In this document: positions 7,815-27,301 of the stretch, in pieces
How the letters are laid out: every line of letters begins with the position of its first letter
Numbering within the stretch: position 1 is the stretch's first letter
Source of the DNA: an uncultured bacterium
GTDB lineage: Bacteria > Oederibacteriota > Muellerivitia > Muellerivitales > Muellerivitaceae
Length of the DNA: 64,000 nt
Direction of reading: 5' to 3'
Assembly (NCBI GenBank): GCA_964525605.1
Contig: CAZGKT010000005.1
Location: 9,122 to 73,121, forward strand
Program-made: the position numbers and the translations under genes
Notes under the pieces: model-generated
Databases searched by the model: none
What the model was told of the DNA's origin: nothing
The model's input: the letters and a program-made list of their open reading frames with translations, nothing else

Positions 7815-8694
7815 CAAATCACCTTTTTGGAAAATGGGATGGGGATGGCACAAGAAGGTTAAGTGGGTGGGTATCTCCCGTCAAGGCTTCGGTTGAACGT
7901 AAGGGCGAAAATCACGCCCTCCAAAACCGGATATTTACTGATTTTTTAATATCTTCCAACCCAATCATAATGAAATCCTTGTCGGCCTCAGACGTAAACT
8001 TCTCAAAATTCAGCCAAGGGAGGCAAACATGGATTCGGGTGTCTGGTCACTTGTGGCTCTGGGACTCATGCTGGCTTTGATTATTTATTACCTGGTTGGT
8101 TATTCCAAATAAACCAAAAGGTCTTTCGGTAAATGAAGTTTATTAGTGCCTTGGCCGTGTGATCTTGCCCGGCTTTAAATTATTGGTGGGAGAATTCTTT
8201 TTTACGACTGCAACTGACCCTGTGTGTTGCCCTTTATCAAGTCTGATTTGATCGAACTGCTGCTGAAAAGCATCCGCTTTCCTCGACCCGAGCCAAAATT
8301 CTTTTCAGGATTTTCTTGCCAACAGTTTTGATGAAGCATACCCCGGTGCATTCGGCTCGCTGGGGAAATTTCGAAGAGATGGTGTAATTGTTTCGCATTG
8401 AGTGGCACTTTTGCTAACAGTTTCTTAATGCTTTCCGCTTCCTTCCTAAGAGAATTCTAATCGATCCCTGACATATCATTCGCTTGCTTTTCAAAAACAT
8501 TCGTTCATAAAACCAGAAAGTGAACATTCATTTTCCTGGAAATCAGCTAGAGAGTTGTTTGGAAAATTAATTTTTTTGTTAATGATTCGTTAGGAATTGT
8601 TTGATTGAACAATTAATGTTCCGCGTCACACAAATTTGTTTCTTGTTCGTAAATTTTTGGTTTTGATTTTTAGGAAATGACGCGTTGTTAGGAT

Positions 8695-8710
8695 TGGCAC
8701 GAGGGTTGCT
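8695..8710 (+). promoter_or_regulatory. Sigma-54 (RpoN) -24/-12 promoter
   Basis: TGGCAC-gaggg-TTGCt matches the TGGCAC-N5-TTGCW consensus exactly. It lies ~170 nt upstream of the putative porin start and is flanked by GTTAGGA repeats. Confidence 0.55.
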
Positions 8711-8882
8711 TTAGTGAGTGCACGTGTTAGGAATCCGAACGGGTAAATTGGAGAACCGGACGGACTGAAGAAAAAGGATGGAGAAGTAAAAAGAGGAAGA
8801 CGCCTCCGATGTGAGAGACGGGGGTTGGTCGGGAGATGGATTCCTCGAAATTTACCCTGAGCGGGGAAAGGTGGGTTTTGAT

Positions 8883-10421
8883 ATGAAAACGAATAGGCTG
8901 AAAAAAATAATCGCGAGGGGGATGCCTCTATTCCTTTTCCTGGCGATGGCCTGGACGGGGTTGATCGGGAAGTCGTGGGCGGATCCTGCTGCTACGCCGG
9001 CGGCTACTCCTGCTGCGACCGAGGCGGCAACGCCGGCGGGGCTGCAGGGCTTTATGAACGATTATGACTTCACCTGGGTGAACGGTAACACCCATGAGAA
9101 AGATTTTCCCATGGCGGGAAAAGTCTTCTCGCCGGAACTGCTTTTTGACACGAATTACGCCTATCAATTTACCAATCCGAACGACCATATGATCAACGGG
9201 TCAACGGCCATGGCCATGGGCAATGAAGTGGAAGTTGAGCATGTCGGATTCGGGGGCGATTTCACCCCAGATCCACACGTTCATGCCCGACTCATGACCG
9301 AATTCGGCATGTACGCTAACCAGGTGCCAAGAAACGACGAAACCCCGGCGCGTGGAACTTGGAACATCATGCAAGGAACTCAGTTTCTCACTGAGGCCTA
9401 CGGCGGTATCCACCTTGATATCCCTGGCACGAATGGTATGAACATTGAAATGGGCCAATTCCCATCATATGTCGGCCTTTTCAGCTTTTATAACTCGGAA
9501 AACTGGTGCTACCAGGCTTCCTACGTTTCTTCCAACACACCCTGGTTTTTCACAGGAATGCGCATCCAGTTCTTCCCCAGTGATGCTTTGAAGATCGAGC
9601 CCTGGATCATCAACGGCTGGCAAACCTATGGTACGTTCGACAGCGGACTGGGTGGATCAGGGGTAAATCTTGGCTTTGAACTCCGCTGGGCGCCCAGTGC
9701 TGATTTGGTTGTGATTTCGAACAATTATGCGGGTCCGGATACGCCTGATTCACCTAATTGCAACCGGTACCACACGGATGACAGCGTTCTCTACAAGTAT
9801 TTGGACGATCCAAAATCGAACGGGATCGATAAGATGGCCTTTTCCATTACGGCCGACGCAGGTTTTCAACAAGGACCTATGTTCATTGGAAATACTGGGG
9901 CTCCTTTCGCCCTCAATTCGGGTCAGATCATTCCGACAGGTGGCGGATTTGTTAACGTCGCCGCCAATGGTCCCAACGCCGAACGCTTCTTGGGAGCCAT
10001 GATGTACGATCGGACTTGGTTTGATCACGATCACTGGGCCTTTACCTTCGGTGGCGGTTTCATGGACAACCCAGGACGCTACTTGGCGCTTATTCCGTCG
10101 ATTGATGGAGATTCGGCCCAGAACTATTCAAACGATCCTGCTGCAAACGCCGCATTTACGGAGAGCCCGGGCTTGCCTTGGACTTGCTGGGATTACGATT
10201 TCGGCTTCCAATACATGCCAACCGAATACTTGACCTTTGACCTGGAATACACGCATCGCTTTTCAACGATCAATTACTTCAACGGTCCGGGCGGGGAAAC
10301 TTCTTCGGATGGATGGCAAGCGGGAGCTGGCACAGGGTCCCAACAAGTCAGCGGGGGCTATACACCTAACCTCGTGCAATTCGAAGACGTCATCGTCGGC
10401 TCTATCATGGTGCACATTTAA
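8883..10421 (+). CDS. Putative outer-membrane beta-barrel porin
   Basis: Signal peptide, then a Pro/Ala/Thr linker (PAATPAATPAAT) and a long Gly/aromatic-rich beta-strand region. GGAAAGGTGG ribosome-binding site before the ATG at 8883. Confidence 0.55.
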   Translation: MKTNRLKKIIARGMPLFLFLAMAWTGLIGKSWADPAATPAATPAATEAATPAGLQGFMNDYDFTWVNGNTHEKDFPMAGKVFSPELLFDTNYAYQFTNPNDHMINGSTAMAMGNEVEVEHVGFGGDFTPDPHVHARLMTEFGMYANQVPRNDETPARGTWNIMQGTQFLTEAYGGIHLDIPGTNGMNIEMGQFPSYVGLFSFYNSENWCYQASYVSSNTPWFFTGMRIQFFPSDALKIEPWIINGWQTYGTFDSGLGGSGVNLGFELRWAPSADLVVISNNYAGPDTPDSPNCNRYHTDDSVLYKYLDDPKSNGIDKMAFSITADAGFQQGPMFIGNTGAPFALNSGQIIPTGGGFVNVAANGPNAERFLGAMMYDRTWFDHDHWAFTFGGGFMDNPGRYLALIPSIDGDSAQNYSNDPAANAAFTESPGLPWTCWDYDFGFQYMPTEYLTFDLEYTHRFSTINYFNGPGGETSSDGWQAGAGTGSQQVSGGYTPNLVQFEDVIVGSIMVHI

Positions 10422-10519
10422 GTCAAAGGATGGTTTGAGGTTAATAAAGTTTGAACTTGAAACGCTGGGCCTGATTTCAGGGATCCGGCTCAGCGTTCTC
10501 TCCTCCTTAAAAGCTGTAA

Positions 10520-10556
10520 AGGGGGGCGGTCTCAAAGCCGCCCCTTCCTTATTTTC
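10520..10556 (+). terminator. Rho-independent terminator
   Basis: Hairpin GGGGGGCGG-tctcaaag-CCGCCCC followed by TTCCTTATTTT. Confidence 0.5.
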
Positions 10557-10609
10557 GAGGTGCTAAAATGGACCCACAAATTGAAGCGGCACCGAAGAGA
10601 GTATTCAAG

Positions 10610-11305
10610 ATGACGAATAAATATTTGGTCTTAATGATTGAAGATGAAAAGCCGATTCGCCGTTTTTTAAAACCCTATTTGGAAAATCATGATTTCAAAG
10701 TGGTTGAGGCGGAAACCGCCCATGAAGGCCTGGCCCTCGCTTCTTCCCATAAACCGGATCTCATTCTTTTGGATTTGGGGCTTCCGGATTTGGACGGCTT
10801 GGTCGTTCTTCGCCGTTTGCGTGAATGGACCCAGGTTCCCGTTATTATCCTGACGGCCCGGGGTAAAGAAAAAGAAAAGGTAGAGGGGTTGGACGCGGGT
10901 GCGGATGATTATCTCGCCAAGCCCTTTGATGTTGAAGAATTGATGGCCCGCATACGCGTGGCCTTGAAACACTTGAATAACATGAAACAGCAGGGCAATG
11001 AACCGGTCTTTGAAACCGCCGATTTCAAAGTGGATTTATCGGCTCGAATTGTTACGGTTCATGGCAAAGAAGTCCATTTGACGCCGAATGAATACAACCT
11101 TTTGGCTTTGCTTATCCGTCACGCGGGTAAAGTAGTGACGCAAAAATTGATTATTGGTGAAATTTGGGGTCCCGGCGGGGATGAACAGGGACGAAATCTG
11201 CGTCTTTATATTCATCAACTGCGGCAAAAATTGGAATCGGACCCGGCCCTTCCCCAGTATCTTCTCACCGAACCGGGTGTGGGTTACCGGCTGAAATACG
11301 AATAA
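10610..11305 (+). CDS. kdpE: OmpR-family response regulator KdpE
   Basis: REC domain with phospho-acceptor context 'DLILLDLGLPDLDG' plus a winged-helix C-terminus 'LTEPGVGYRL'. Located immediately upstream of kdpD. Confidence 0.85.
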   Translation: MTNKYLVLMIEDEKPIRRFLKPYLENHDFKVVEAETAHEGLALASSHKPDLILLDLGLPDLDGLVVLRRLREWTQVPVIILTARGKEKEKVEGLDAGADDYLAKPFDVEELMARIRVALKHLNNMKQQGNEPVFETADFKVDLSARIVTVHGKEVHLTPNEYNLLALLIRHAGKVVTQKLIIGEIWGPGGDEQGRNLRLYIHQLRQKLESDPALPQYLLTEPGVGYRLKYE

Positions 11306-11421
11306 ATCCTGTTCTTGACCCCTTAATAATTAATTAAATCTTGCCCGAGCCCCGGTTTTTCCAATCATCCATTGAATTATTTGCGGTTAAATGGGTATGG
11401 CTGACCATCAAAGATGGGATC

Positions 11422-14127
11422 GATATGAAAGATAAACGCCCGAATCCGGATGAACTACTCAAAAAATTTAACGAAGACGAAAAAGCGCGTCACCGTGGAA
11501 AACTAAAGATCTTTTTCGGGGCCTATCCCGGCGTGGGGAAAACTTACACCATGCTGGAAGCCGCCCGCCTTAAAAAGGCTGAAGGGGTGGATGTAGCTGT
11601 TGGAATTTTGGATACCCACGACAGCAAGGAAACGGAAGCCCTCCTCGCGGGCATGGATATCATCCCACCTTTGGAAATATGGCAAAGGGGTGTGCTTTTA
11701 AAAGAATTGGATTTGGATCAGGCATTGAAGCGGCGCCCCGGCCTCCTGATCGTGGATCATTTGGCTCATTTGAACGGGGAGGGTATCCGCCACCTGAAAC
11801 GCTGGCAAGACGTGGAAGAGATACTTGAAAGTGGAATCGACGTCTATACCACCCTCAATGTTCAGCAACTCGAAAGTCTGCACGATATCGTCATCCGGCT
11901 CACCGATATTATGGTTTGGGAGACGGTTCCCGATTCGGTTCTTGAAAACGCGGATGAACTGGAACTGGTGGACCTGCCCCCTAGCGACCTTTTGGAACGC
12001 CTGGATAAGGACCTGATCTTCATACCCGAGGCTCATCAACCGGCCAATTGGCATTTTTTCAAGCGGGCCAACCTGGACGCTTTCCGCGAGATGGCCCTAC
12101 GGATCACGACCGATTGGGTGAACGATCAGGTCCAGATTCATCACCGGGGCATGGCCAGTTCCCAGGCCTGGCCCATTCGAGAACGACTGCTGGTCTGTAT
12201 CAGCGCCAGTCCCTCCTCCGCCAAATTGGTCCGAGCCGCCCACCGCATGGCCAAAAGCATGCGGGCCGACTGGACGGCGGTTTACGTGGAAGCGTCTTTT
12301 CACTCGGAAAACAAAGAAAAAGATTTGGAAGCCATGGCCATCCAACATTTAAGGCTGGCCGAGAGGCTGGGAGCGGAAACGGCCATCCTGACGGGATCGG
12401 ACTTCGTGGATGAAGTTCTGACCTACGCCCGGGATAAAAGCGTGACCCGGATATTAGTGGGCTCCCCGTCCAAGCGATCCTGGAGACATCTATTTTCAGG
12501 CTCCAGGGTCAACCGGTTATTACGGGAGTGCAGGGATATTGAGGTGGCCGTGACACCCGGGGATTCGGACGAACTGGCGCCCAAGGTGGTGGGAAAGTCG
12601 CCCTTGAAGTGGGATTGGAAAGGTTTCGGATTCACCTTTTTGGAAATGGCGCTTTGCACGGCGTTCAACCAAATCATTTTTATGTATATGGACCCCTCCA
12701 GCCAGACGCTCATTTACGTCAACCAAATCATGGTCTATCTCCTGGGCGTAGCGGTTTTGTCCGCTTCCCAGGGTGTATGGCCTTGTGTGGCGGCCTGTAT
12801 CCTGAACGTCCTTGCCTTCGACTTTTTTTTCGTCCCGCCCCTGTATGAATTTGACGTTTATGACAGCCGATATATCACCATTTTCTTGGTCATGCTGACC
12901 GTGGGCCTCATCATCAGCAACTTGACGGTACGCATGAAAACCCAAACCCGGCTCTCTCGCTTAAGGGAGCGCCGAACGGAAGCCCTTTACGGCCTTTCCC
13001 GGGAACTGGCGTCTACCCGTGGTACGAACGAACTTTTAAACGCGGCGGTGAAGCATATTTCCGAGGTCTTCGAAAGTTCGGTTACCGCTTTTCTACCCAA
13101 TGAACAAAATCGGCTTGAGGCGCGATGCTCCACCACCGCGGACCCGCATCTTTCATCCAAGGAAATGGGGGTAGCCCAGTGGGCCTATGACTTGGGGCAA
13201 ATGGCGGGCAAGGGGACGGATACCCTTCCGGACGCGCAGGAGCTTTATGTTCCCCTTTTGGCCGGGGGCGAGCCAGTGGGAGCGTTGGGCGTGAAATCTC
13301 ATTTCCCGGACAGGCTTTTTATTCCGGAGCAGCTCCACCTCCTGGAAGCTTTCGCTCACCAGACCGCCCTGGCGGTTTTAGGGGACAAACTGGCCGAGGA
13401 AAAGCAGGAAGCCCAGTTGCAGATGGAAACGGAAAAATTACGAAGTTCCCTCTTGAGCTCCGTATCGCATGATTTGCGCACCCCCCTGGCCACCATCAAG
13501 GGAGCCATTGGAGGATTGTTGGAGTCGGGCGAGGCGATGGGGGCTGCGACCCGGCGGGATTTTCTGGAAAACGTCCACGAAGAAACCGGCCGTTTGGAGA
13601 GGCTGGTGACCAACCTGTTGGAAATGACCCAGATCGAAGCGGGCACGATCCAACCCAAAAAGGAACCCAACGACCCACTCGATGTCATCGGCTCCGCGGT
13701 AGCCCGGGTTCGCAAGCGGATGAACGGAAGGAAATTGGAAATGAATGTTCCGCCCGACCTTCCCCTGGTTCCCATGGATGGTCTCCTCATCGGCCAAGTG
13801 GTGACCAATCTTTTGGACAATGCCTTGAAATATACCCCGGAAGGAAGTCCCCTCGAAATCACGTCTTGGATCGATAAAAATATATGGGTGGTCCAGGTGG
13901 CGGACCGGGGTCCGGGAGTGCCCGCACAAGACCTGTTGCATTTATTCGACAAGTTTTATCGGGGCCCGCAGAAGGAAAAAAAGAGTGGCGCCGGATTGGG
14001 GTTGGCCATTTGTAAGGGCATGGTCGATATCCATCGGGGGACATTGACGGCTGAAAACCGGCCGGAGGGTGGAATGATTTTCCGCTTGGCTTTGCCGATT
14101 GAACCGGAAGTTATAAAAGGTTTGTGA
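11422..14127 (+). CDS. kdpD: Sensor histidine kinase KdpD
   Basis: N-terminal KdpD domain 'RGKLKIFFGAYPGVGKTYTML', a USP-like region, four TM helices, a GAF-like region, the H-box 'SSVSHDLRTPLATI' and an ATPase domain. Start set at MKDKRP by comparison with E. coli KdpD. Confidence 0.85.
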   Translation, partial: DMKDKRPNPDELLKKFNEDEKARHRGKLKIFFGAYPGVGKTYTMLEAARLKKAEGVDVAVGILDTHDSKETEALLAGMDIIPPLEIWQRGVLLKELDLDQALKRRPGLLIVDHLAHLNGEGIRHLKRWQDVEEILESGIDVYTTLNVQQLESLHDIVIRLTDIMVWETVPDSVLENADELELVDLPPSDLLERLDKDLIFIPEAHQPANWHFFKRANLDAFREMALRITTDWVNDQVQIHHRGMASSQAWPIRERLLVCISASPSSAKLVRAAHRMAKSMRADWTAVYVEASFHSENKEKDLEAMAIQHLRLAERLGAETAILTGSDFVDEVLTYARDKSVTRILVGSPSKRSWRHLFSGSRVNRLLRECRDIEVAVTPGDSDELAPKVVGKSPLKWDWKGFGFTFLEMALCTAFNQIIFMYMDPSSQTLIYVNQIMVYLLGVAVLSASQGVWPCVAACILNVLAFDFFFVPPLYEFDVYDSRYITIFLVMLTVGLIISNLTVRMKTQTRLSRLRERRTEALYGLSRELASTRGTNELLNAAVKHISEVFESSVTAFLPNEQNRLEARCSTTADPHLSSKEMGVAQWAYDLGQMAGKGTDTLPDAQELYVPLLAGGEPVGALGVKSHFPDRLFIPEQLHLLEAFAHQTALAVLGDKLAEEKQEAQLQMETEKLRSSLLSSVSHDLRTPLATIKGAIGGLLESGEAMGAATRRDFLENVHEETGRLERLVTNLLEMTQIEAGTIQPKKEPNDPLDVIGSAVARVRKRMNGRKLEMNVPPDLPLVPMDGLLIGQVVTNLLDNALKYTPEGSPLEITSWIDKNIWVVQVADRGPGVPAQDLLHLFDKFYRGPQKEKKSGAGLGLAICKGMVDIHRGTLTAENRPEGGMIFRLALPIEPEVIKGL

Positions 14128-15371
14128 TCGCCATTAATCCATTCAAGGGATATTTCGTGAAAAAAATATTTAAAATTCAAATCGCACTTATCCTCTTCAT
14201 GCTCTGGGAAGTGAGCCAGGCCCATTCCCAAGAAATCGCCCATGTTCAATTTACTTTGGACAGTCAAAACAAAGAAGTTCATATCACCTATGACTTTTAT
14301 GATTCCCAGGACAGGGCCGAGGATGTATTGATTCAAGCATCAAATGATCAGGGTAAAACATGGGACATCCAGCCTTCCCCCCAATCTCTTCAAGGAGACT
14401 TGCATGGGGTGAGGCCGGGCAAGGGAAAAAGCATTACCTGGAAGGCCGGGGACGATTTCCAGGCCTTCTCGGCCGAATTGTTCCAGGTGAGGCTCCTCTT
14501 GGTGCAAGTGGTGGCCTCCGCCTCCTCCGCCTCCACCCTCCTGGACCCAACGGCGGAAGCCACCAAGGAAGCCGGCGCGGAGGAAAAGGAAAACCAACTT
14601 GAGCTGGATCAAACGAAAAATCTTCCCCAGTCAATCACCGGCAAGGATGGAGCGGCCATGGTGTTGATTCCAGCGGGATATTTCAGGATGGGCTCTCCGA
14701 AAGACAAGGGAGAAAAGGACGAGAAACCCGCGCACCAGGTTTGGGTTAGTTCTTTTTACATGGATCAAACATTGGTAACGTTCGACCGCTATGACAAATT
14801 TTGCGACGCCACGGGTCGGCCAAAACCATCGGATGGCTTTGTTCTTTACAACAAGCCCTCACCTCATTGGGGAAGGGGTAGCCATCCTGTCTTAAACCTG
14901 ACCTGGAAGGCGGCGGACGCCTATTGCAAATGGGCCGGGGGGAGACTTCCCACGGAAGCTGAATGGGAAAAGGCCGTCCGGGGGGGAACTGAATCGACTT
15001 ATTTTTGGGGAAATGATGGGGGACAGGCCTCCCAATACGCCTGGTATGAGGGAAATTCCTACTATAAAACCTGGCCGGTGGGTCAGTTAAAACCTAACCC
15101 CTTCGGCCTTTATGACGCCGTGGGAGATCTATGGGAATGGGTGTCCGATTGGTACAGCGCTGATTATTACGTCTCAAGCCCGGGACGAAATCCGACAGGA
15201 CCGGTCGAGGGCAAATCAAAAGTTTTACGGGGCGGATCTTTTGCCAACGGCGATGACTGTCTGCAGTCCGCTCACCGGAGTAATTGGGATCCCGAAAAAG
15301 AGGATGGACAGGAACTGATGGGACATTTACATGAACATGGCTGTCGCTGTGTTCAGGAAGCAGTTCAATAA
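14124..15371 (+). CDS. Secreted FGE-sulfatase (SUMF1/formylglycine-generating-enzyme-like) domain protein
   Basis: C-terminal half shows FGE-domain hallmarks ('RLPTEAEWEKAVRGG', 'GLYDAVGDLWEWVSDWY', 'VLRGGSF'). N-terminal ~150 aa are unique. The ATG overlaps the kdpD stop (ATGA); a GTG at 14157 is an alternative start. Confidence 0.6.
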   Translation: MIAINPFKGYFVKKIFKIQIALILFMLWEVSQAHSQEIAHVQFTLDSQNKEVHITYDFYDSQDRAEDVLIQASNDQGKTWDIQPSPQSLQGDLHGVRPGKGKSITWKAGDDFQAFSAELFQVRLLLVQVVASASSASTLLDPTAEATKEAGAEEKENQLELDQTKNLPQSITGKDGAAMVLIPAGYFRMGSPKDKGEKDEKPAHQVWVSSFYMDQTLVTFDRYDKFCDATGRPKPSDGFVLYNKPSPHWGRGSHPVLNLTWKAADAYCKWAGGRLPTEAEWEKAVRGGTESTYFWGNDGGQASQYAWYEGNSYYKTWPVGQLKPNPFGLYDAVGDLWEWVSDWYSADYYVSSPGRNPTGPVEGKSKVLRGGSFANGDDCLQSAHRSNWDPEKEDGQELMGHLHEHGCRCVQEAVQ

Positions 15372-15477: not shown

Positions 15478-15565
15478 CCTAAACACTTTCCTAACGATGT
15501 TCTAACTCCTTCCTAACAAACGCCCCCGCAACAAATCCGGAACACCATCTAACAGCATCCTAATC
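15478..15565. promoter_or_regulatory. Cluster of CCTAAC/TCTAAC direct repeats at 11-12 bp spacing
   Basis: CCTAAAC at 15478, CCTAAC at 15490, TCTAAC at 15501 and CCTAAC at 15512, plus TCTAACAGCA at 15549 and CCTAAT at 15559. Lies upstream of the 15788 gene and the P-II array. Confidence 0.5.
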
Positions 15566-15787
15566 GGCTCTCGCCGTATATTTACGTTGCAAGAAGGGAA
15601 TTGGTTCCCGAAAAAATTTCCAAATAGCGGAACCGAAGAAAGAGAGGGGATTCCATGATTCAACTCATCGTACTCATGCTGGGTTTAGTTCTCGCCACAA
15701 CCGGTTTGTCCGGGTTCATTCTTTTGAAAAAGGAGGAAATGTTTTGAATTAAAAATTTTTTTAAAATTGCTGAAAAGGAGAAACAAG

Positions 15788-16663: not shown

Positions 16664-16699
16664 ATCGGCTGAACCAAAAATTGTCCGCATAAGGGGGAG

Positions 16700-16731
16700 G
16701 CCGACCTGAAAAGGCCGGCCTTTTTTTTTGA
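16700..16731 (+). terminator. Rho-independent terminator
   Basis: Hairpin AGGCCG...CGGCCT followed by a T9 run. Confidence 0.6.
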
Positions 16732-16753
16732 AACAGCCTGAGGGGAGCACGTC

Positions 16754-17140: not shown

Positions 17141-17209
17141 AACGCTTAAATATTCAAAGCTAAGCCGGGTATTTCTTTAAATTTAATTACGGAAAAAGGG
17201 ATTTCAATT

Positions 17210-17545: not shown

Positions 17546-17724
17546 GAAGTCGCTCTCCAGAAAAACATTTCAACATCTTGCGCCGTTTGTTCTGTCGTTT
17601 CCTCATTTCCCATTTTGGGCCGTTAATCTGAAATTAACATTTGTTAATTGTTGCTAACACTTTCTAAACAATTCCGGCTTTCTTCTAACAGCAACTTAAT
17701 GCGCTCCTGTCGTACACTTCCGCC

Positions 17725-18369: not shown

Positions 18370-19808
18370 AAAAAATACTCTCTACATACATTCTGGCGGT
18401 GTGGGGCCTGTCACTTGTGGCGAGGGCCCAAACCCTCACCCTGGAACAGGCCATCCGGACAACCTGGGAGAATTCTTCTCAATTGCAGGCCCAAAAGAAC
18501 CTGGCGGGCATTTTTTCGGACGATACCTGGAGGCGGTTCGTGCCCGAGGAGCCCAGCTTTTCCTATACGGATGATTACAGCCAGACCTTTTATACCCTTG
18601 GCCTTTCCCTCACCTACCCCTTCCCCTTGAAGAGCATCTTCATGAACCAGCTGGACTGCGCCAACGCGGAACAACAAAGGTTCGAGTTAACCGCTCAAAA
18701 ATACGACCTGGCCGTCGCCATCGCCCAGGCCTATATGACCGGCGCTACGGCACAGGCCATGATCGAGTTCCAGAAACAGAACGTCCAGGACCTGGAGACC
18801 ATCACCGAGGCTATCCGCCTCCAATACGTCCACGGCCAATCCAACCAGACCCAGAAAATCAGCGCCGAATTGCAGTTGACCCAGGCGCAAAGGGATCTCA
18901 AAACCGCCCAGGACCAGCTGACGACGGCCGTGGAACTGTACGCCCGGCTGATGAAGATTCCCTCGGGCCAGGTGACCGGTTTCGAACTGCCGGAGGATGT
19001 TTCCCCCGACATCATCCGTGAATTGGGCGGCAAAACCTCGGGCCAATTGCGCGACAGGGCCAATGTGGACGTGGGGGAAGCCACCCGGGCCACCGGCTTT
19101 TGGAACCAGTTTCCGGACCCGACCTTCAGCTTTACCAAGGATTACTACGACCCGAACAACGCCATCGCCCCCTACAACGACAGTCCCACCCAGCAGCCCA
19201 ACGACTATAACCTCACGGTTTCCTTCACCCTTCCCATCCTCTTCCCCTTCCGCGAGGTGGCGGAAGCCCAGCGAAGCGAGAACCAGGGGATTGTGGCCCG
19301 GGAACAGGCCCGGCTCCAGCTTTTGCAGGACAACTCGGCCCAGGAGGCGGGCGTCCTGGACTACAAGCGAAGCAAGGCGAGGTTCCACCAACTGCATGAC
19401 CGGGACCTGCTCCTGGCCGAAACCATGAGGCAGGCAGCGGTGGAGGCTTATAAAAGAGGCCAACTACATTTTGCCGACCTAATGCTGGCCCGGCAGACCT
19501 ATGCCAGCCTGAAAACCGAGGATATTCAGATCCGCCAGGAAATCGTCAACGCCCATCTGGCCGGCTTGAGGGAACTGGGCAATTCGGACGAAGTTTCAAC
19601 GACGAATGAATCCAACTTGGCACCGGCGAGTTCTTCTCCTACACCCACTTCTACCCCGGATCATCTTTTAGGATCACCCGATTCGGCGGTGGCGGCTCCG
19701 GTTGTTGAGAACGATCAAAAAGTTTTGAGTGGAAATGAAACCTCCATCCCCCTACCCACGCCCACCGTGGGAGCTGGAAACGGGGATGGGGAAAAAGAAG
19801 CGAAATAA
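18366..19808 (+). CDS. Outer-membrane efflux protein (TolC/OMF family)
   Basis: Signal peptide, then 'LTLEQAI' and long coiled-coil repeats typical of the OMF family. Overlaps the upstream gene by 4 nt and precedes the membrane-fusion and RND genes. Confidence 0.75.
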   Translation: MKKILSTYILAVWGLSLVARAQTLTLEQAIRTTWENSSQLQAQKNLAGIFSDDTWRRFVPEEPSFSYTDDYSQTFYTLGLSLTYPFPLKSIFMNQLDCANAEQQRFELTAQKYDLAVAIAQAYMTGATAQAMIEFQKQNVQDLETITEAIRLQYVHGQSNQTQKISAELQLTQAQRDLKTAQDQLTTAVELYARLMKIPSGQVTGFELPEDVSPDIIRELGGKTSGQLRDRANVDVGEATRATGFWNQFPDPTFSFTKDYYDPNNAIAPYNDSPTQQPNDYNLTVSFTLPILFPFREVAEAQRSENQGIVAREQARLQLLQDNSAQEAGVLDYKRSKARFHQLHDRDLLLAETMRQAAVEAYKRGQLHFADLMLARQTYASLKTEDIQIRQEIVNAHLAGLRELGNSDEVSTTNESNLAPASSSPTPTSTPDHLLGSPDSAVAAPVVENDQKVLSGNETSIPLPTPTVGAGNGDGEKEAK

Positions 19809-19831
19809 GACTTTTGAGGAGAGGTGCTGAG

Positions 19832-20785
19832 ATGAAAACATTCCAAATGCTTTTGCTGATGGGAACGCTAACTGTCGGGGCGAGGGCCTGGGCCAACGAC
19901 TTTCAATGGACAAAGGTGGTAGCGGGCGAGGAGATCACCGGAATCCGAACGACGGGAAAGATCATCCCCCAGGCGGGGGCCCTAAAAAGCCAGTCGGCCA
20001 ATACCCAGGGGCGGATTATCTCGGTTCTCAAGAAGGAAGGGGACTCCGTCGAGGTGGGCGACCCGCTTTTCCTGGTCAATGATTCGGAATGCGAGGCACT
20101 GGCCGAGGAAAAGCTCTTGGCCCAGAAAAATGGCGTTCAGGATCTTATCGACGCGGCCAACCAGCGTGAAAAGGAACTGGGCGTCAAAGTGGTATCCGGA
20201 CAGTACGAGATCGTTTCCCTCTTCAAGGGCGTTATTCTCCAGAACCTGGTCAGCGCCGGCACGATTTATAGCCAAGGCCAACAGTTGTCCAATATCCTGG
20301 ATATGCGCAAACTCACAATCGAGTTGGATTTTGCGGAAAAATATGTTTCAGACCTCCGCCGGGGTCAGAAGGTCACCTTCCAACTAGCATCCGACTCCCA
20401 GACGTCCTATAACTCCACCATCGAGACGATCGTACCCACGATCGATCCCAACCAACGCACGACTATCGTGCGTTTGCGACCGGTGGTGCTTCCTGCCACG
20501 GTCAACCTGTCCGAGCTGGTCTATGGCACCGTGCAGACTGGCGCGAGCCAGCCCATTCTCAAGGTTCCTTCCACATCCCTGGTCTTCAGTCACGATAAGC
20601 AATACGTCATGAAGGGGGACGAGAATAACCCCGTGGCGGTGGAAGTCCAGGTGGTCAACGAGACGGACGAATTAAGTTCCGTGAGGCCGGTGAACGCAGG
20701 CGAATTGAAGGAAGGGGATAACGTGGCCAGCGAAGGAGGAATCTTCCTCTGGGCAAAGGTCAATGGCATCTACGGGGGCGGCTGA
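19832..20785 (+). CDS. RND efflux membrane-fusion (periplasmic adaptor) protein
   Basis: Biotinyl/lipoyl-like hairpin 'GRIISVLKKEGDSVEVGDPLFLV' and a beta-barrel C-terminus. GAGGAGAGGTG ribosome-binding site upstream. Confidence 0.7.
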   Translation: MKTFQMLLLMGTLTVGARAWANDFQWTKVVAGEEITGIRTTGKIIPQAGALKSQSANTQGRIISVLKKEGDSVEVGDPLFLVNDSECEALAEEKLLAQKNGVQDLIDAANQREKELGVKVVSGQYEIVSLFKGVILQNLVSAGTIYSQGQQLSNILDMRKLTIELDFAEKYVSDLRRGQKVTFQLASDSQTSYNSTIETIVPTIDPNQRTTIVRLRPVVLPATVNLSELVYGTVQTGASQPILKVPSTSLVFSHDKQYVMKGDENNPVAVEVQVVNETDELSSVRPVNAGELKEGDNVASEGGIFLWAKVNGIYGGG

Positions 20786-20852
20786 TCCCCTCCGTGCGGA
20801 AAATACGGCCTGCGGTTGAGAGAATGATGGACAAAGGTTAAAAGGATCGAAA

Positions 20853-23800
20853 ATGGTAAAACTCATATTGAAATGGATGCAGTTCCAAAGGGAAGCCTTC
20901 GTATTGTTCCTTTTCCTCCTGATGGGCATCGTGGGTTACGGGGCTTACGTGGCCTTCAACAGTGAGATCATGGCCTTCCCCGAGTTCACCAACGTGCAAT
21001 TAAACGTGCAGACCCAATGGCCCGGCCACGCGGCGGAGGAAATCGAGCGATTGGTCACCATCCCCCTGGAAACGGCCACCCGCAGCGTGCCAGGGGTCAT
21101 CAATTCCACCTCTCTTTCCGAGTTCGGATTGAGCGTCATCCTCCTCACCTTTTCTGACGATACCCCGAATTGGAAGGCCCGAAGCGACACGGTGCAGTAC
21201 ATGTCCAACGCCAACATGCCCAGCGGAGTGACGCCCGGTCTTTCAACCGATACCACTCCCTTAGGGCAGATCATGCGTTATTCGCTGGAGGGCAACTTGC
21301 CCCCGGACGAGATGCGCATGATCCAAGATTGGCAGATCACGCGCTATCTGGCTACTGTCCCTGGAGTATCCGATGTGGAAGCCTTTGGGGGGCCCACCCG
21401 CACGGTGGAGATCAAAATCGACATCCCGAGGATGGAATCCCTGGGGCTTACCATCTCCCAAATTGCCCAGAATCTGGGCGCCAACCATCAAAACGCGGGC
21501 GGCGATTTCATTACCCACGGCGATGAAATGTATATCGTGCGGTCCATCGGGCTTTACCAGGATCCCATGGACCTGGAAAACGCCGTCATCGCGACCCAAG
21601 GGAACACCCCTATCCGCATCAAGGATATCGGGTCGGTGGTCATGAGCCACCATGTGCGCCTGGGGCAGACTGGACGGGACCATGATGATGACGTAGTGCG
21701 GGCCATGGTCAACCTACGGGTCGGCGCCAATACCATGCAGACCCTGGCCGGGTTGCATAAGAAAATCGACGAACTAAACAACCATCTATTGCCCAAGGGA
21801 TGCAAGATCAACATCTATTATGACCGGGGAGACCTGATCCGCCGCAGCAGCCGGACGGTCTTCCACAACGTCATTTTTGGAATCGTCCTGGTCTGTACCC
21901 TTTTGATCCTGGGTTTCGGGATCCAGTATTGGGCCATGTCCTCAGGGGTCGCCCTCATCATCCCCTTTGCCTTGTTGGTGGCCTTCGTGGGATTGCATAT
22001 ATGCGGTTACAACCCCAATCTGATTTCCCTTGGGGCTGTGGACTTCGGCATCATCGTGGAAACTGCGGTCTTTGGGGCCGAGGCACTAGCCGTCTCCCTA
22101 GCACGGCAAAAAAGGAAGGACGACGAGGCGAACGCCTTAGCCCTTTCGGAGGTCCTGGGTCCAGCCCTACTTTGCGCATTTCTTCTACTAATCGCATTCA
22201 TTCCCATCCTGAGCCTTCAGCGCATTGAAGGCCGCATTTTCCGGCCCCTGGGGATCACTTTGGTTTCGGCGCTCGTGGGGGGACAATTGGGAGCTTTTAT
22301 TTTCCTTCCCCTGGCCGCCTCCTGGGCGCCTATTGGACCCAAGCCCACCAAAGCAGACGATGTTTTCCATTGGATACTAGAACGTTGCAACCGGGTCATG
22401 CTTTGGTTTAACGGATTCAAGCACATCGGCTGGATCGCGGGCGCCATCATGGCGGCCCTCCTGATCCTCATTAATTGGGGCATGGGTACCGAATTCCTGC
22501 CCACCATGAACGAGGGCAACCTTTGGATCCGGGTGAGCGCACCGCCCACCATTTCCCGGGAAAAGGCTGTGCAGTTGGCCCACGATATTCGCGAAAGAAT
22601 GCTTCGGGTCAAGGAAGTCAAATCGGTGGTTTCCCAGCTGGGGAGACCCGATGACGGGAGCGACATCAGCGGTTTTGATACGCTAGAGTTTCAGGTGGAT
22701 CTGGGCGATCCGGAAGATTGGAAGAGCGCGGATTCCATCGAAGGTTTCGTGAAACTCATCCGAGAACAGGAAAAGGATATCGAAGGCTGCGACTTCTACT
22801 ATTCCCAATATATTAAAGACAACGTGGACGAGGCTATCACGGGGGTCATGGGTGAACTAGCCGTCAAAATCCACGGCCCGGATTTACGTGTCCTGCAGAG
22901 CTTGGGGGATCAGTTTGAAACAATCATAGCTAAAACGCCCGGGGCAGTTGATGTGGGCGAAGAGGACATACTCCAACAGCCCGAGCTGCAGTATGTGATG
23001 GATCGGGATAAGATGGACAGTTACGGCATCCAGGTTTCCCAGGCGGAGGACGTTCTCTCATCGGCTCTCTCCGGTAAATGGGCTGCTCAAATGGTGGATC
23101 CGCAGGGGCGCTATGTAGATATTATGGTGAAACCCCGGCTGCCCAGCCCGTTGAACCAAAACGTTTTGAATTCAATTCCTCTTTTGGCACCGGGCGGAGC
23201 GGAAATCCCCTTGGGTGAGGTGACCCAGGCCAAAGTGGTCGAAGGGATCTCGCATATTTACCGCGAGGAAGGAGACCGGCGCGTGGCCGCTAAGTGCTCG
23301 GTGAGGGGCAGGGCGGTCGTGGAATTCGTTAAGGAATGCGACGACCAGATCAAGAAGCAGGTCAAGCTTCCACCCAAGTACTGGTACTACTGGTCGGGAA
23401 CTTTTGAGAACGCTATTCGCGCCAGCCGGCAGTTGTCTATCATCGTGCCGATCTGCATCCTGGCCATGATTACCATTATGTACACCTGGTTTAAGGATTG
23501 GAGGCTCTTGGCCATCTTGCTTTGGGAAATTCCATTCGCCACTCTGGGCGGTTTGGCGGCCCTGCGTATGGCCGGATTGAACCTGAGTATTTCGGCGGCG
23601 GCGGGAGGCATCATCCGCATCGGGGTTTCCTTCCTGACGGGCATGATGATCATCTCGGCCTTCGTCAAGACCCGGGACGCCTCCAAGGCCCTGATGGAAA
23701 AGGGAAGAAGCATTCTGATTTCGAACGGGGTGGCCATTATCGGATTGCTACCTGCGGCTTTGTCTCACGCCATCGGTTCGGAAACCGCGCGGCCCTTCGC

Positions 23801-23900
23801 AGTGGCCATTTTGGGGGGGTTGGCGGCTTCGATGACGCTGAGCTTGACCTTGCTACCGGTGTTTTTGAAGAGGATCGAGCACTTCTACAAGCATAAATAA
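20853..23900 (+). CDS. RND efflux transporter, CzcA/CusA-like (heavy-metal-efflux type)
   Basis: 1015 aa with 12 TM helices, two large periplasmic loops and AcrB/CzcA family motifs throughout. Follows the OMF and adaptor genes. Confidence 0.85.
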   Translation: MVKLILKWMQFQREAFVLFLFLLMGIVGYGAYVAFNSEIMAFPEFTNVQLNVQTQWPGHAAEEIERLVTIPLETATRSVPGVINSTSLSEFGLSVILLTFSDDTPNWKARSDTVQYMSNANMPSGVTPGLSTDTTPLGQIMRYSLEGNLPPDEMRMIQDWQITRYLATVPGVSDVEAFGGPTRTVEIKIDIPRMESLGLTISQIAQNLGANHQNAGGDFITHGDEMYIVRSIGLYQDPMDLENAVIATQGNTPIRIKDIGSVVMSHHVRLGQTGRDHDDDVVRAMVNLRVGANTMQTLAGLHKKIDELNNHLLPKGCKINIYYDRGDLIRRSSRTVFHNVIFGIVLVCTLLILGFGIQYWAMSSGVALIIPFALLVAFVGLHICGYNPNLISLGAVDFGIIVETAVFGAEALAVSLARQKRKDDEANALALSEVLGPALLCAFLLLIAFIPILSLQRIEGRIFRPLGITLVSALVGGQLGAFIFLPLAASWAPIGPKPTKADDVFHWILERCNRVMLWFNGFKHIGWIAGAIMAALLILINWGMGTEFLPTMNEGNLWIRVSAPPTISREKAVQLAHDIRERMLRVKEVKSVVSQLGRPDDGSDISGFDTLEFQVDLGDPEDWKSADSIEGFVKLIREQEKDIEGCDFYYSQYIKDNVDEAITGVMGELAVKIHGPDLRVLQSLGDQFETIIAKTPGAVDVGEEDILQQPELQYVMDRDKMDSYGIQVSQAEDVLSSALSGKWAAQMVDPQGRYVDIMVKPRLPSPLNQNVLNSIPLLAPGGAEIPLGEVTQAKVVEGISHIYREEGDRRVAAKCSVRGRAVVEFVKECDDQIKKQVKLPPKYWYYWSGTFENAIRASRQLSIIVPICILAMITIMYTWFKDWRLLAILLWEIPFATLGGLAALRMAGLNLSISAAAGGIIRIGVSFLTGMMIISAFVKTRDASKALMEKGRSILISNGVAIIGLLPAALSHAIGSETARPFAVAILGGLAASMTLSLTLLPVFLKRIEHFYKHK

Positions 23901-23957
23901 AAAAAGCCCTGGTCCGGTATGTCGGATCAGGGCTTCTGTGTATCTGGTTAAAAAGAT

Positions 23958-24206: not shown

Positions 24207-24321
24207 GTCGTCCCTCCCTCTTGGCGGATGTTGAAAATTTCTTTTTCAGTCATCCACTAATGAAACACTAACACAAGAAATTTATTTTTTGTAGTGAGAG
24301 GTGAAAATAATTGGGTTTACT

Positions 24322-24350
24322 GTTAGGGAACCGTTAGGAAGTTGTTAGGA
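24322..24350 (+). promoter_or_regulatory. Three GTTAGG direct repeats at exact 11-bp spacing
   Basis: TGTTAGGgaac-CGTTAGGaagt-TGTTAGGattt. This is OmpR/PhoB-style helical phasing. It sits directly beside the orphan kdpE-like gene. Confidence 0.55.
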
Positions 24351-24404
24351 TTTGGATCTACAAGATACATTTTTGAAGAAAGGCCGCCTCAAATATGTTC
24401 CAGG

Positions 24405-25154
24405 TCACAATTTGGGTTGTCGTGAGCGCTCGGTCGCTTTCGGTTTGGGCGGAAGGAATTCATTCTTAAGCCGGTAGCCCACGCCGGGTTCCGTCAGAAT
24501 GTATTGGGGAAGGGAGGGGTCTTCTTCAATTTTTTGACGCAGTTGATGGATAAAAAGTCTCAGTGAACTCGCTTGTTCTTCTTCTTCGATCCCCCATATC
24601 TCCCGGGTGATCATCTTTTGGGTGACCACTTTTCCCGCGTGACGGATCAGGATGATCAAGAGTTTGTATTCGTTTTGGGTTAGGTGCACTTCCTGATTAC
24701 GGACCGTCACGGTCCGGCTGGCTAAATCCACTTTGAAATCGGGTGTCTCAAAGCAGGGATCATTTCTCTGGGTTTTGAGGTGGGACTCGTGGCGTAGGGC
24801 CACTCGAATACGTGCCAAAAGTTCGCCCGTATCAAAGGGTTTGGTGAGGTAATCGTCGGCGCCCGCGTCCAGACCCTTTACCTTGTCCCTTTCTTGGTCC
24901 CGACAGGTCAGGATGATGATAGGGCACTGGGTCCATTCGCGAAGCCTCCCTAGGACCACTAGGCCGTCCAGATCCGGTAGTTCCAGATCCAGAAGAATCA
25001 GGTCGGGCTTATGGGAGGAAGCCAAGGCCATGCCCTCTTCGGCGTTATCCGCCTCAATGACCTTGAAATCGTGGCTTTCTAGAAAGGGTTTCAGGAAACG
25101 GCGGATGGGCTTTTCATCTTCAATAATAAGAACCACATATTTATTTATCGTCAT
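24405..25154 (-). CDS. OmpR-family response regulator, KdpE paralog with no adjacent kinase
   Basis: Roughly 70% identical to KdpE (10610-11305) over its full length ('MTINKYVVLIIEDEKPIRRFLKPFLESHDFKV...'). AGGTGA ribosome-binding site before the ATG. Confidence 0.8.
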   Translation of the reverse strand: MTINKYVVLIIEDEKPIRRFLKPFLESHDFKVIEADNAEEGMALASSHKPDLILLDLELPDLDGLVVLGRLREWTQCPIIILTCRDQERDKVKGLDAGADDYLTKPFDTGELLARIRVALRHESHLKTQRNDPCFETPDFKVDLASRTVTVRNQEVHLTQNEYKLLIILIRHAGKVVTQKMITREIWGIEEEEQASSLRLFIHQLRQKIEEDPSLPQYILTEPGVGYRLKNEFLPPKPKATERSRQPKL

Positions 25155-25744
25155 ATTCACCTGGTTTTATGCGGCGGTAGAAAATGGGTTTACGCCACGT
25201 TTAAATAACGGAACAATTATAAAAAAATCTAAGGTTTTGAATGTGATGAAAGACAGGAAAATAGTTTTGGTTTGTCGGGATTTATCGCGTGAGAATATTT
25301 TTAGAAAAACCCTTCATACGAGCCGTTTTTCATTATTCCCTAATAAATCACGCTCAAATCTTAACGGAATCCTAATGTCTCTCCGGACTAGAATTCAGAA
25401 AATCTACAAAGGGGAGGTGGCCCATGGATTCAGGCGTCTGGTCGCTCGTGATTCTGGCCTTCATGGTGGTTTTGTCTGGCTTTTATTTGAATAGCTATAA
25501 ATAATTTAAAGACTTTAAAAAGGTCCTTGGCCCACAAGCCAGAGGGCCTTTTTTATTGTCCTGAGAGATCAGGATCTACTTGAAGGCTCCTGCCGGATGA
25601 AAAAGGCCTTTAAATACTCTTCTGAATATAGTCGATTCAACAAAAAGGGTTTGAGCTTCCACCTTAAAAATCCTCCCAAAAACTAGCATCTGCGTTAGAA
25701 GTGCTGGTAATTTAGTTTGCGATAGAGTTACTTCTAATGAAAGG

Positions 25745-26383
25745 GTGGCCATGGCTAAAGAAACTGATATCAAGACGGGAAGCACGCAATCATTTGCCCG
25801 GTTTATTCTGTGGGAAATTTTAGGAATTGTCGGGTTTCTCCATATTCTTCAATATGCTCCCGCTAACGACGTTACACCTCTTTATTTTTTGGCCAACTCA
25901 GTCGTTTTCATCGCGGTTTATCCAGTCCTTTACTTCTTAAGCCAGTTAAACCTTCCGGCGGTTTTGAAAGTCATCGTCTCCCCTTTAAGTATCGTCTTGA
26001 GGCTCGTGCTGATGGTTTCTTGTTATGTTTGGGTCACCTATATCCTTTATGCGACCGGATATATGTTGGCCATGACTTCCTGTTACGCGGTTTTTCGGGA
26101 TGATTTCATGTATCTGGGACCTTTTTTTGCCTTGGATTACGTTTTCTTCATCGAGCACCTCTGGGGCGTCGGCAAGAACAACCTGTCCTTTTGGAGGGCC
26201 CTGGGCATCATCTCGGATGCAGTCAGCGGAGTGGTGGGTGGGTTCTATCTGGGCCGCATTTTGAATACTAAATGGGGAATGTTTTTTGGAACAGATGAAA
26301 CAAGGGCCATCATCTGGATTCTCTTTATTCTTGGCGGTGTCGCCGCTGTGGTTTGGTTTAGCAACAAGACCCGGCAGGGATAA
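25745..26383 (+). CDS. Hypothetical polytopic membrane protein
   Basis: 212 aa with 5-6 hydrophobic helices. Confidence 0.4.
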   Translation: MAMAKETDIKTGSTQSFARFILWEILGIVGFLHILQYAPANDVTPLYFLANSVVFIAVYPVLYFLSQLNLPAVLKVIVSPLSIVLRLVLMVSCYVWVTYILYATGYMLAMTSCYAVFRDDFMYLGPFFALDYVFFIEHLWGVGKNNLSFWRALGIISDAVSGVVGGFYLGRILNTKWGMFFGTDETRAIIWILFILGGVAAVVWFSNKTRQG

Positions 26384-26408
26384 ATTTCATTTACAAAGGA
26401 GGAGGGGA

Positions 26409-26900
26409 GTGGCCCAGGCGAATACCGTAAAAATAAAAACGACTGTTGATAGAGAACAATGTCAAGCAACGCTCAAGGCCTACGAAATCCTCGTGGCCGA
26501 AAGGGGGATTCGGTTTAAAGACAACCTTCAATGGCCGGACCAATATGTCGTGACATGGAAGGACCCTCTTCATTTCAAGATCGCCAATTGGGTGCATCGC
26601 GTGGGGTTGCCTGCTGACGGATATACAGAACAAGAATCCTGGGAAGTGGAATTGTCCCAAGATAATAAAACGGTCTTGAGCCTTCAAAAGCCTCAAGTGG
26701 ATTTGAAAAACATCCTTCTGGTCCTATTGGGGTTGGTGTTGGTCAGCGTTGTATTAATTGCCGGAAAATCGGTGCCTCGTGTTTATGTGGGTCTGGCATG
26801 GGCCGGCTTGTTTCTCATTTTTTTCTTTCGAGTCTTCATTTTTGATGACGAAACCACCCTTTGCGTCCGTTTTTTGGGAAGGGTTTTGAACCCCGAATGA
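26409..26900 (+). CDS. Hypothetical protein with C-terminal TM anchor
   Basis: AAAGGAGGAGG ribosome-binding site before the GTG at 26409. The upstream part of the listed ORF overlaps the preceding gene. Confidence 0.35.
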   Translation: MAQANTVKIKTTVDREQCQATLKAYEILVAERGIRFKDNLQWPDQYVVTWKDPLHFKIANWVHRVGLPADGYTEQESWEVELSQDNKTVLSLQKPQVDLKNILLVLLGLVLVSVVLIAGKSVPRVYVGLAWAGLFLIFFFRVFIFDDETTLCVRFLGRVLNPE

Positions 26901-27301
26901 ATCTGGAAATGAAAGCCTTCAAACCTCCGGGTTCCTATTAAAATGGAATGAATTCTTCGCTGATTTTTCCCCGTGATTGTGCATGGACCATCTTTTCACC
27001 AGGCGCTTGGGTTCCTCTCTGGAATTGGTGAAGCTAACCCTAAGGTTTCGAATTGTACCAACCATTTGGCAGTGGGTAATACAACCCGTTACCTCTTGGC
27101 TTGGGGGCAAAGGGCAGGCTAAAAGTTCTTACTCCAGGTTCTAAATGCTTTGTTTTACACCCCCGAAAACTACAATATTGTCGCTAATAACCACATTGGT
27201 ATGTATTAACCATTGTGGAGAACTTTTTCTGAGCCTCTCAAAACTAACTTTTTCCTAACGCTTTATTGCCAAATAAATAGAAATATTTGATTTGTCCAAA
27301 A

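Follow-up and report, generated by a model that had tools for sequence, protein, structure and literature searches.

Gene content of the locus

The subject of this analysis is a set of 11-bp tandem repeats in the intergenic DNA of a 64-kb stretch of contig CAZGKT010000005.1 (the window, meaning the whole stretch that was analyzed), which derives from an uncultured bacterium of soil or peat (candidate division FCPU426). The genomes nearest to the window are metagenome-assembled genomes (MAGs) labelled with the same candidate division. The repeats lie near the genes for two KdpE-like response regulators, RR1 and RR2, whose operators they probably are. The gene map is based on Pfam, NCBIfam, and PDB searches, and features lie on the plus strand unless stated otherwise.

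The left end of the window holds the C-terminal part of kdpB together with kdpC (12-2159; E1-E2 ATPase/HAD and KdpC domains). Further along are genes for an OmpL-like (BBP2) porin (8811/8884-10421), RR1 (10568-11305; Response_reg and Trans_reg_C domains), the KdpD sensor kinase that adjoins it (11341-14127; KdpD, Usp, DUF4118, GAF, HisKA, and HATPase_c domains), and an FGE-sulfatase-domain protein (14124-15371). Three P-II genes (16262-17545) and an HTH-DUF1232 gene with an RND efflux operon (17725-23900) follow. On the minus strand are the gene for an 82-amino-acid membrane protein (24206-23958) and the gene for RR2 (24405-25160), which has no adjoining kinase gene. The preliminary description of this DNA had already recognized two KdpE-like paralogs, one of them next to repeats at 24322, and both are indeed there. 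Beyond them lie a fusion of an APC permease with a P-II domain (27356-29326) and, on the minus strand, a homologue of the K+ transporter KimA (30142-32118; PDB 6S3K, 5e-59), the leader of which is a cyclic di-AMP (c-di-AMP) riboswitch (32172-32330, minus strand; RF00379, 71 bits). Given this content of kdpBC, KdpD, KdpE paralogs, and KimA, we consider the region a K+-homeostasis island, and the riboswitch-led KimA gene means that K+ uptake is subject here to c-di-AMP as well as to KdpDE.

Phased repeats in the intergenic DNA

The preliminary description listed GTTAGG(A) words with 11-bp phasing in several intergenic regions, and every one of the listed words is present where it was placed. The bare hexamer GTTAGG is not enriched in the window (19 copies, with 19.4 expected from shuffles). 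In the direction of the gene that follows, the motif reads as a tandem (T)YCTAAC(R) arranged head to tail every 11 bp, with half-site variants CTTAAC, CCTAAT, and TCTAAA and arrays of two to six half-sites. When same-strand distances between CTAA words were tabulated for spacings of 4 to 40 bp, the sole peak fell at 11 bp, with 8 pairs against 0 to 3 elsewhere. Markov simulations gave 0.57 such pairs (maximum 4 in 300), and YTAAY pairs on the same strand at exactly 11 bp numbered 14 against 0.86 expected, so the claim of an 11-bp phase is borne out.

A half-site matrix of 11 nt was built from 27 half-sites of the window, pairs were scored at 11-bp spacing, and a pair with a score of at least 15 was called strong. 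As for the possibility, raised in the preliminary description, that the motif is just as dense in coding sequence, within the window all 14 strong pairs are intergenic and none is coding, the intergenic share of the window being 15.4%. The intergenic DNA is AT-richer (46% GC), and Markov models of order 1 to 3 trained on it gave 0.21 to 0.26 strong pairs, with a maximum of 3. The interval from 8.4 to 32.4 kb contains all 14; the other intergenic DNA of the window (5.7 kb) has none. The matrix having been derived from these very sites, independent evidence comes from the spacing histogram and from the relatives described below. No RNA families were found by Rfam at the repeat sites. A weak match at 5914 (minus strand) was dropped, having no -10 element at the canonical offset.

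Promoter architecture

Five promoters, P1 to P5, share one predicted layout, in which exactly 12 nt separate the last half-site from a predicted -10 element of the form TAnnnT, with no -35-like hexamer. Across the window and the relatives, 18 of 65 non-identical pairs have a TAnnnT that follows the 22-mer at offset 10, against 0 to 4 at any other offset, and within the window the pairs with TAnnnT at offset 10 are exactly the proximal pairs of P1 to P5. P1, P2, and P3 each have a further pair or array, about three helical turns upstream of the proximal one. Based on these predicted elements, the promoter layout is PhoB-like and activator-dependent.

P1 precedes the porin, kdpE, and kdpD genes. 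Its distal pair, GCTAAC-N5-CTTAAT (8413..8429; score 21.6), is at about -73 to -57 relative to the inferred start site and is conserved in the relatives L090 and L092. The proximal pair, CCTAAG-N5-TCTAAT (8445..8461; score 19.5), contains CCTAAGAGAnnnCTAAY, which is invariant across three genomes, and is followed by the predicted -10 TATCAT (8474..8479), kept as TATCAT or TATTAT. A further relative, L094, has equivalent pairs 5' of its porin gene.

P2 stands before a 30-amino-acid peptide gene, a gene for a 151-amino-acid secreted protein, and the three P-II genes. The distal array comprises CCTAAA, CCTAAC, TCTAAC, and CCTAAC (15478..15517; scores 15.3-19.4), within which TTCCTAACAAAC is invariant in four genomes. 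Its proximal pair is TCTAACAGCATCCTAAT (15548..15564; score 18.8), with TCTAACAGCAnCCTAAY invariant in the window, L090, L092, and L094, and the predicted -10 TATATT (15577..15582) follows after the 12-nt spacer as part of an invariant TATATTT. P3, before the HTH-DUF1232 gene and the RND efflux operon, has a distal pair GCTAAC-N5-CTAAA (17653..17668; score 15.3; GCTAACGCTTTCCTAAY in the relatives) and a proximal pair TCTAACAGCAACTTAAT (17684..17700; score 17.6), in which TAACAGCAA is invariant in four genomes. The predicted -10, TACACT (17713..17718, 12-nt spacer), keeps the form TAnnnT in relatives. Only 6 nt separate it from the ATG at 17725, which means that the mRNA is leaderless or that the true start is at 17752. 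The 9-mer CTAACAGCA, which was noted early on to recur at 15550 and 17686, can now be placed: it is part of the proximal box TCTAACAGCAnCYTAAT common to P2 and P3.

P4 is on the minus strand, ahead of the gene for the 82-amino-acid membrane protein, and consists of three CCTAAC half-sites in perfect 11-bp phase (24322..24349; scores 23.3 and 25.2). The window, L004, L005, and L006 share AAATCCTAACAACTTC of this array without change and differ little in the rest of it. The predicted -10-like TATTTT (24304..24309, minus strand) lies 12 nt past the last half-site in a conserved AT-rich block, and the paralogous gene of L011 and L012 has a related site upstream. An invariant CAAAAATGT (24367-24375, minus strand) is located 5' of the P4 array in four genomes. 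P5, the strong pair CTTAAC-N5-CCTAAT (25360..25376; score 22.3), was overlooked in the preliminary site list, the other members of which are real. Its predicted -10, TAGAAT (25389..25394, 12-nt spacer), is found in L090 as well, and the gene behind it encodes a hydrophobic peptide of 26 amino acids (25424-25504).

Conservation in relatives and association with kdp genes

Syntenic relatives (L004/L090, L005/L092, L006, L094, L101, and L010-L014) were obtained by exact-protein look-ups and two collection scans, with marker proteins 62-91% identical to those of the window. Orthologous intergenic regions were aligned for P3 (A1), P4 (A2), P1 with its neighbouring sigma-54 promoter (A3), the sixth site P6 described below (A4), P2 (A5), and P5 with the kdp promoters (A6). 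In these alignments, which include a locus of 64% GC, the boxes and, at P1 to P5, the -10 hexamers are conserved blocks and the flanks have diverged, so that the phylogenetic footprinting proposed in the preliminary description supports the sites at orthologous promoters. Control loci for lineage specificity were 75 kdp loci from other phyla (1.18 Mb). With the window-derived matrix, eight FCPU426 loci have 2.34 pairs per 10 kb and the controls 0.06 per 10 kb, and among metagenome loci the density tracks a KdpE identity of about 70% or more.

The boxes are also found at kdp genes. In five relatives (L011, L012, L013, L014, and L094) kdpFABC is preceded by a box, the promoters having the form TCTTAAC-N4-TCC(T/A)(A/T)AT-N12-TAnnnT or a close variant. 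The P5 box aligns with the kdpFABC-promoter boxes of L014, L013, and L011 and with a peptide promoter of L090, and the L014 kdpFABC box has the same core, TCTTAACGGAATCCTAAT. Boxes 5' of kdpD or kdpE genes, as autoregulation would predict, occur at P1 of the window (porin-kdpE-kdpD), in L006 ahead of both kdpE and kdpD (3449 and 18013), and in L101 ahead of a kdpDE operon (6584). The link to a KdpE-like regulator that had been proposed from the window is thus strengthened by the relatives.

Traces of a related box appear outside the division. The control loci gave 11 weak matrix matches, 4 of which precede kdpA by about 220-290 nt on the sense strand (two in Gemmataceae, one in Planctomycetota, and one in an NC10 MAG). 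The kdpA-upstream repeats are of a yTTwAC type, for example TATCTTTACGAAATCTTAACAT and CGATTTAACGACTTCCTAACGC, and are intermediate between TTTACA of E. coli and CTAAC. Intermediate forms CTTTAC and CTTAAC at kdp promoters of other phyla bridge the TTTAYA and YCTAAC half-sites. A search of the kdp promoter zone of 80 loci for the strict canonical E. coli box, TT[TA]A[CT]A-N5-TT[TA]A[CT]A, gave one trivial match, the CTTAAT pair of L010.

The candidate regulators

The best NCBIfam model for both regulators is KdpE (259 bits for RR1 and 240 for RR2, the next best model reaching 184), and PhoB models score 165-175 bits. The top PDB match of RR1, 6LGQ, is a regulator without a name whose aligned sequence matches E. 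coli KdpE; the best named match is E. coli KdpE itself (4KNY, 1.3e-71). In E. coli KdpE, the residues R193, R200, and T215 contact DNA (PMC3264566), and all three are conserved in RR1. RR1 and RR2 share 74% identity and have recognition helices that are almost the same. Synteny with kdpBC further supports KdpE orthology. The neighbouring KdpD scores 775 bits against an NCBIfam cut-off of 1123. Two KdpE-like genes per locus are present in L013, L092, and L094 as well; since the pair recurs in FCPU426 relatives, the duplication of KdpE is old within the clade.

Sigma-54 promoters and sites outside the sigma-70 layout

Two sequences of the type TGGCAC-N5-TTGCT, the only two sigma-54 promoters of the window (0.11 expected), bear on how the remaining repeats can be read. 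One (8695..8710) serves porin-kdpE-kdpD and is invariant in L090 and L092. The other (27302..27317) serves the APC-permease::P-II fusion gene; four genomes agree in its GG and GC core elements and at most of its remaining positions. With sigma-54 promoters at the porin and at the P-II permease, the repeats there cannot act by simple sigma-70 recruitment, and the local regulon that was first proposed, which included both genes, is supported with this reservation. Its membership is also wider than first thought, taking in the small membrane-peptide genes, the 82-amino-acid membrane protein, and, in relatives, kdpFABC itself.

Upstream of the porin, the half-sites TCCTAAC / ATTAAC / ATTAAT (8566..8595, minus strand; score 20.2) are about 100-130 bp ahead of the sigma-54 promoter, and a -10 is missing at the canonical offset. 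L090 and L092 have GTTAGGAATTGT unchanged and L013 has it too; the second half-site varies. The word at 8589-8595, which had been listed among the repeats, is therefore an invariant element, yet a reverse-oriented one upstream of the porin sigma-54 promoter. Beside it is a conserved palindrome, GAACAATTAATGTTC (8609-8623), and L013 has a module of reverse TCCTAAC plus palindrome in two copies (12188 and 17514). Two single words on the list fare differently. The GTTAGGA abutting the sigma-54 -24 element (8687..8693) is not conserved, reading GTTGGTT in L090 and ATTGATA in L092, and is probably non-functional by this comparison. The GTTAGGA just 3' of the promoter (8726..8732) is identical in L090 but degenerate in L092 (TTTAGAA).

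Upstream of the permease fusion, the P6 pair ACTAAC-N5-CCTAAC (27243..27259; score 19.4) is 43-59 bp upstream of the sigma-54 -24 element and has no sigma-70 -10 at the canonical offset. This site, also on the original list, is conserved in the two closest permease loci, L170 and L171, and absent at that position in L172. Its location relative to a conserved sigma-54 promoter means that any effect of P6 would be modulatory. A conserved palindrome, TACAATATTGT (about 27172-27184), precedes the same promoter. Thus both the 8566-8595 and the 27243-27259 pairs are 5' of conserved sigma-54 promoters and adjoin conserved palindromes, and a sigma-54 enhancer or an IHF-type architectural site was considered for each. 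GAACAATTAATGTTC and TACAATATTGT are likely sites of enhancer-binding proteins; no gene for such a protein is encoded in the window.

Two further pairs fall outside the sigma-70 layout. An inverted-orientation pair, CTAAT-N6-CTAAC (24257..24272; score 13.2), is within the 5' leader of the gene for the 82-amino-acid membrane protein and is conserved in L004, L005, and L006. A weak candidate, TTAAT-N6-TTAAT (32360..32381; score 16.0), lies between the KimA riboswitch leader and a gene of 254 amino acids at a non-canonical distance to a -10, and a stronger CTTAAT-N5-CTTAAT takes the equivalent position in L092 and L010. The KimA riboswitch leader is partly identical in L092.

Some listed words belong to other elements. 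GTTAAT at 17643 is one half of a separate palindrome, ATTAACATTTGTTAAT (17633-17648), which is upstream of P3 and conserved in four genomes. ACATTTGTTAAT recurs at 17735-17746, just inside or after the annotated HTH-DUF1232 start, in all four. ATTAACATTTGTTAAT/ACATTTGTTAAT probably serve as an operator for the HTH-DUF1232 protein and not as a KdpE half-site, and their placement makes them look like an autoregulatory operator pair flanking the P3 promoter. The inverted pair at 25694-25740, described as related to the motif, is an ordinary 8-bp inverted repeat (25694/25730), of which the window has 73 against 49 expected; the gene 3' of it has no orthologue in the fetched loci.

Interpretation

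The direct 11-bp repeats, their intergenic placement, and the fixed 12-bp distance to the -10 agree with the initial reading of the sites as operators of an OmpR/PhoB-family regulator. Going further, we consider it probable, from the sequence evidence and the relatives together, that the repeats are operators for the KdpE paralogs and constitute a lineage-specific KdpE box of this FCPU426 bacterium. They most likely define a regulon of about six promoters within the K+-homeostasis gene island.

In the mechanism we propose, K+ limitation would be sensed by KdpD, leading to phosphorylation of KdpE (RR1 and possibly also RR2). Dimers of KdpE~P would bind head to tail on the tandem half-sites. A proximal dimer at about -41 to -25 would touch region 4 of sigma-70 and so take over the part of the -35 element, in the manner of PhoB at pho boxes, and would recruit sigma-70 polymerase. 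Cooperativity would be added by a distal dimer bound at about -73 to -57, where E. coli has its KdpE box. The outcome would be co-induction of porin-kdpED, the P-II cluster, the efflux operon, the small membrane proteins, and kdpFABC. At the two sigma-54 promoters, pairs located between the putative enhancer palindromes and the core promoter could modulate transcription by bending or blocking, not by recruiting polymerase.

As a type of element the motif is familiar from textbooks: OmpR/PhoB-family regulators bind direct-repeat operators, of which the KdpE box is one. Comparison with characterized systems helps to separate what is shared from what is new. The E. coli KdpE box consists of a pair of direct 6-bp repeats set 5 bp apart at -72 to -50 (PMC3264566), and E. 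coli KdpE is a single-target regulator (PMC5934670). The regulators here have KdpE as their closest homologue by sequence, RR1 is partnered with KdpD, the box precedes kdpFABC in relatives, and the P1 distal pair takes nearly the E. coli position. In contrast to the E. coli box (TTTATA-N5-TTTACA), the half-site is (C/T)(C/T)TAAC, a predicted extra dimer site close to the promoter takes the place of the -35, up to six half-sites make up an array, at least six candidate target promoters lie within 25 kb, and there are two KdpE paralogs. Because E. coli KdpE has a single target, the regulon would here be expanded.

Two other families of operators are instructive. In the pho box, tandem direct repeats of 11 bp end about 10-12 bp before the -10 and occur in place of the -35, and strong PhoB-dependent promoters have multiple boxes stacked upstream. 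The repeats share with the pho box the 11-bp period and the replacement of the -35, but they read CCTAAC where the pho box reads CTGTCAT, no phosphate genes are among the targets, and the associated regulators are KdpE-like, not PhoB-like. A functional analogy can be drawn to GlnR, an OmpR-family regulator of actinomycetes (which are not known to have sigma-54 promoters), with its a-site/b-site repeats upstream of amtB-glnK. Both arrangements place phased OmpR-family half-sites upstream of P-II and transporter genes, whereas the regulator family and the motif differ, and the present lineage has sigma-54 promoters.

Several points weigh against assigning the repeats to KdpE. The KdpE scores of RR1 and RR2 both fall below the NCBIfam equivalog cut-off of 325 bits. 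The half-site is YCTAAC/CTTAAC, not the TTTATA/TTTACA of E. coli, and so departs from the enterobacterial TTTAYA form. The window's own kdpFABC promoter is off the left edge, and the contigs retrieved in the KdpC look-up, at most 5 kb long, end within kdpB. The sites at 8566-8595, 8726, 24257-24272, 27243-27259, and 32360 misfit a model of sigma-70 recruitment. The proximal placement and the multi-operon regulon are departures from E. coli that we infer from sequence, as we do binding by RR1 and RR2 in this uncultured organism, and the -10 hexamers and start sites are predictions.

The alternative that survives best divides the sites between the two regulators: RR1, with KdpD, would bind the kdpFABC-type CTTAAC-N5-CCTAAT boxes (P5 and kdp), and the orphan RR2 would answer another signal and bind the CCTAAC arrays (P2, P4, and P6), giving two overlapping regulons. 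We consider this rather unlikely. CTTAAC does consistently open the kdp and P5 boxes where the P4 and P2 arrays have CCTAAC, the paralogs show small differences just ahead of the recognition helix (GRN vs. ASS) at their overall 74% identity, and the gene pair recurs in L013, L094, and L092. However, RR1 and RR2 have essentially the same LRL(Y/F)IHQLRQK core in their recognition helices, and the P1 and P3 arrays mix half-site types. Moreover, the stretch of L005 around P2-P4 keeps the P2, P3, and P4 boxes and does not contain an RR2 gene, though a second KdpE-like gene is upstream of the porin on the same contig (L092).

A less favored explanation is that another OmpR/PhoB-family regulator, PhoB- or OmpR-like and encoded elsewhere, binds the repeats, with the proximity of kdp genes a coincidence. 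Repeats of 11 bp with a box about 10-12 bp from the -10 are generic to the family, and only 64 kb of the genome is visible. Nevertheless, the boxes 5' of kdpFABC in five relatives and of kdpD/kdpE operons in two, and the related boxes at kdp promoters of three other lineages, would all have to be fortuitous. In addition, the strong sites are all clustered in the 25 kb that hold the kdp regulators, and Pfam, NCBIfam, and PDB annotation found no pho, pst, or osmoporin-type genes in the window, which makes this explanation improbable.

That the repeats are not operators at all, being chance AT-rich words, phased curvature elements, or small repeat or mobile-element remnants, could draw on the chance-level count of GTTAGG and the AT-richer intergenic DNA, but it is scarcely credible given an 11-bp peak that is unique in the spacing histogram, composition-matched nulls of 0.2 pairs against 14 observed, boxes that are conserved islands amid diverged orthologous DNA, a fixed orientation and fixed distances to the -10 and to the gene, and flanks lacking the kind of similarity expected from a mobile element. 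The idea that the repeats are an alternative-sigma -35 element or a mobile repeat was rejected as well, since they come in 3-6 phased copies, are conserved at particular orthologous promoters, and have flanks without similarity.

Returning to the KdpE box as the preferred interpretation, no description of the motif or of such a regulon for FCPU426 was found in the searchable literature. What is new is the sequence variant and its PhoB-like promoter-proximal placement, together with the breadth of the regulon (P-II proteins, RND pump, porin, and small membrane peptides) and the juxtaposition with two sigma-54 promoters. For a two-component system of an uncultured candidate phylum from peat and soil, one without genetics, the analysis provides an operator code and a promoter layout that are concrete enough to test, and it makes regulon prediction in MAGs possible. 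KdpE, single-target in E. coli, is here suggested to govern a whole K+-homeostasis island that includes the Kdp ATPase, porin, P-II proteins, RND pump, and membrane peptides and that adjoins a KimA gene under c-di-AMP riboswitch control. No established principles are overturned.

A link from K+ to nitrogen/P-II signalling is possible. In its fullest form, which we offer tentatively and regard as doubtful, KdpDE would be a multi-operon integrator coupling K+ status to P-II signalling: KdpE would drive the three divergent P-II paralogs, an RND cation-type pump, and the small membrane peptides and would sit between enhancer and core at two sigma-54 promoters, so that K+ limitation would gate sigma-54/nitrogen-type activation, with two KdpE paralogs reading one operator code.

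Additional observations

Three small hydrophobic-peptide genes were seen in the window (8029-8112, 25424-25504, and 15655-15747). Two encode paralogous peptides of 27 and 26 amino acids that start with MDSGVWSLV, and the third peptide, of 30 amino acids, is MIQLIVLMLGLVLATTGLSGFILLKKEEMF. KdpE-type boxes are directly ahead of two of the three genes, and L013 and L014 have two extra small membrane open reading frames before kdpF. The small peptides may be accessory peptides of Kdp or KdpD.

Among the three tandem P-II proteins and the permease-fused domain (28991-29326), the T-loop residue Tyr51 of E. coli GlnB is kept only in the first paralog. The first two paralogs have C-terminal extensions. 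The permease::P-II fusion family has more than 7,900 metagenome matches at E <= 1e-50.

Farther along, the window encodes two very large paralogous proteins of 1318 and 1115 amino acids (46450-50406 and 52714-56061). Each has a TIR domain near the N-terminus (TIR_2 / ThsB-like), and they may be defense-related.

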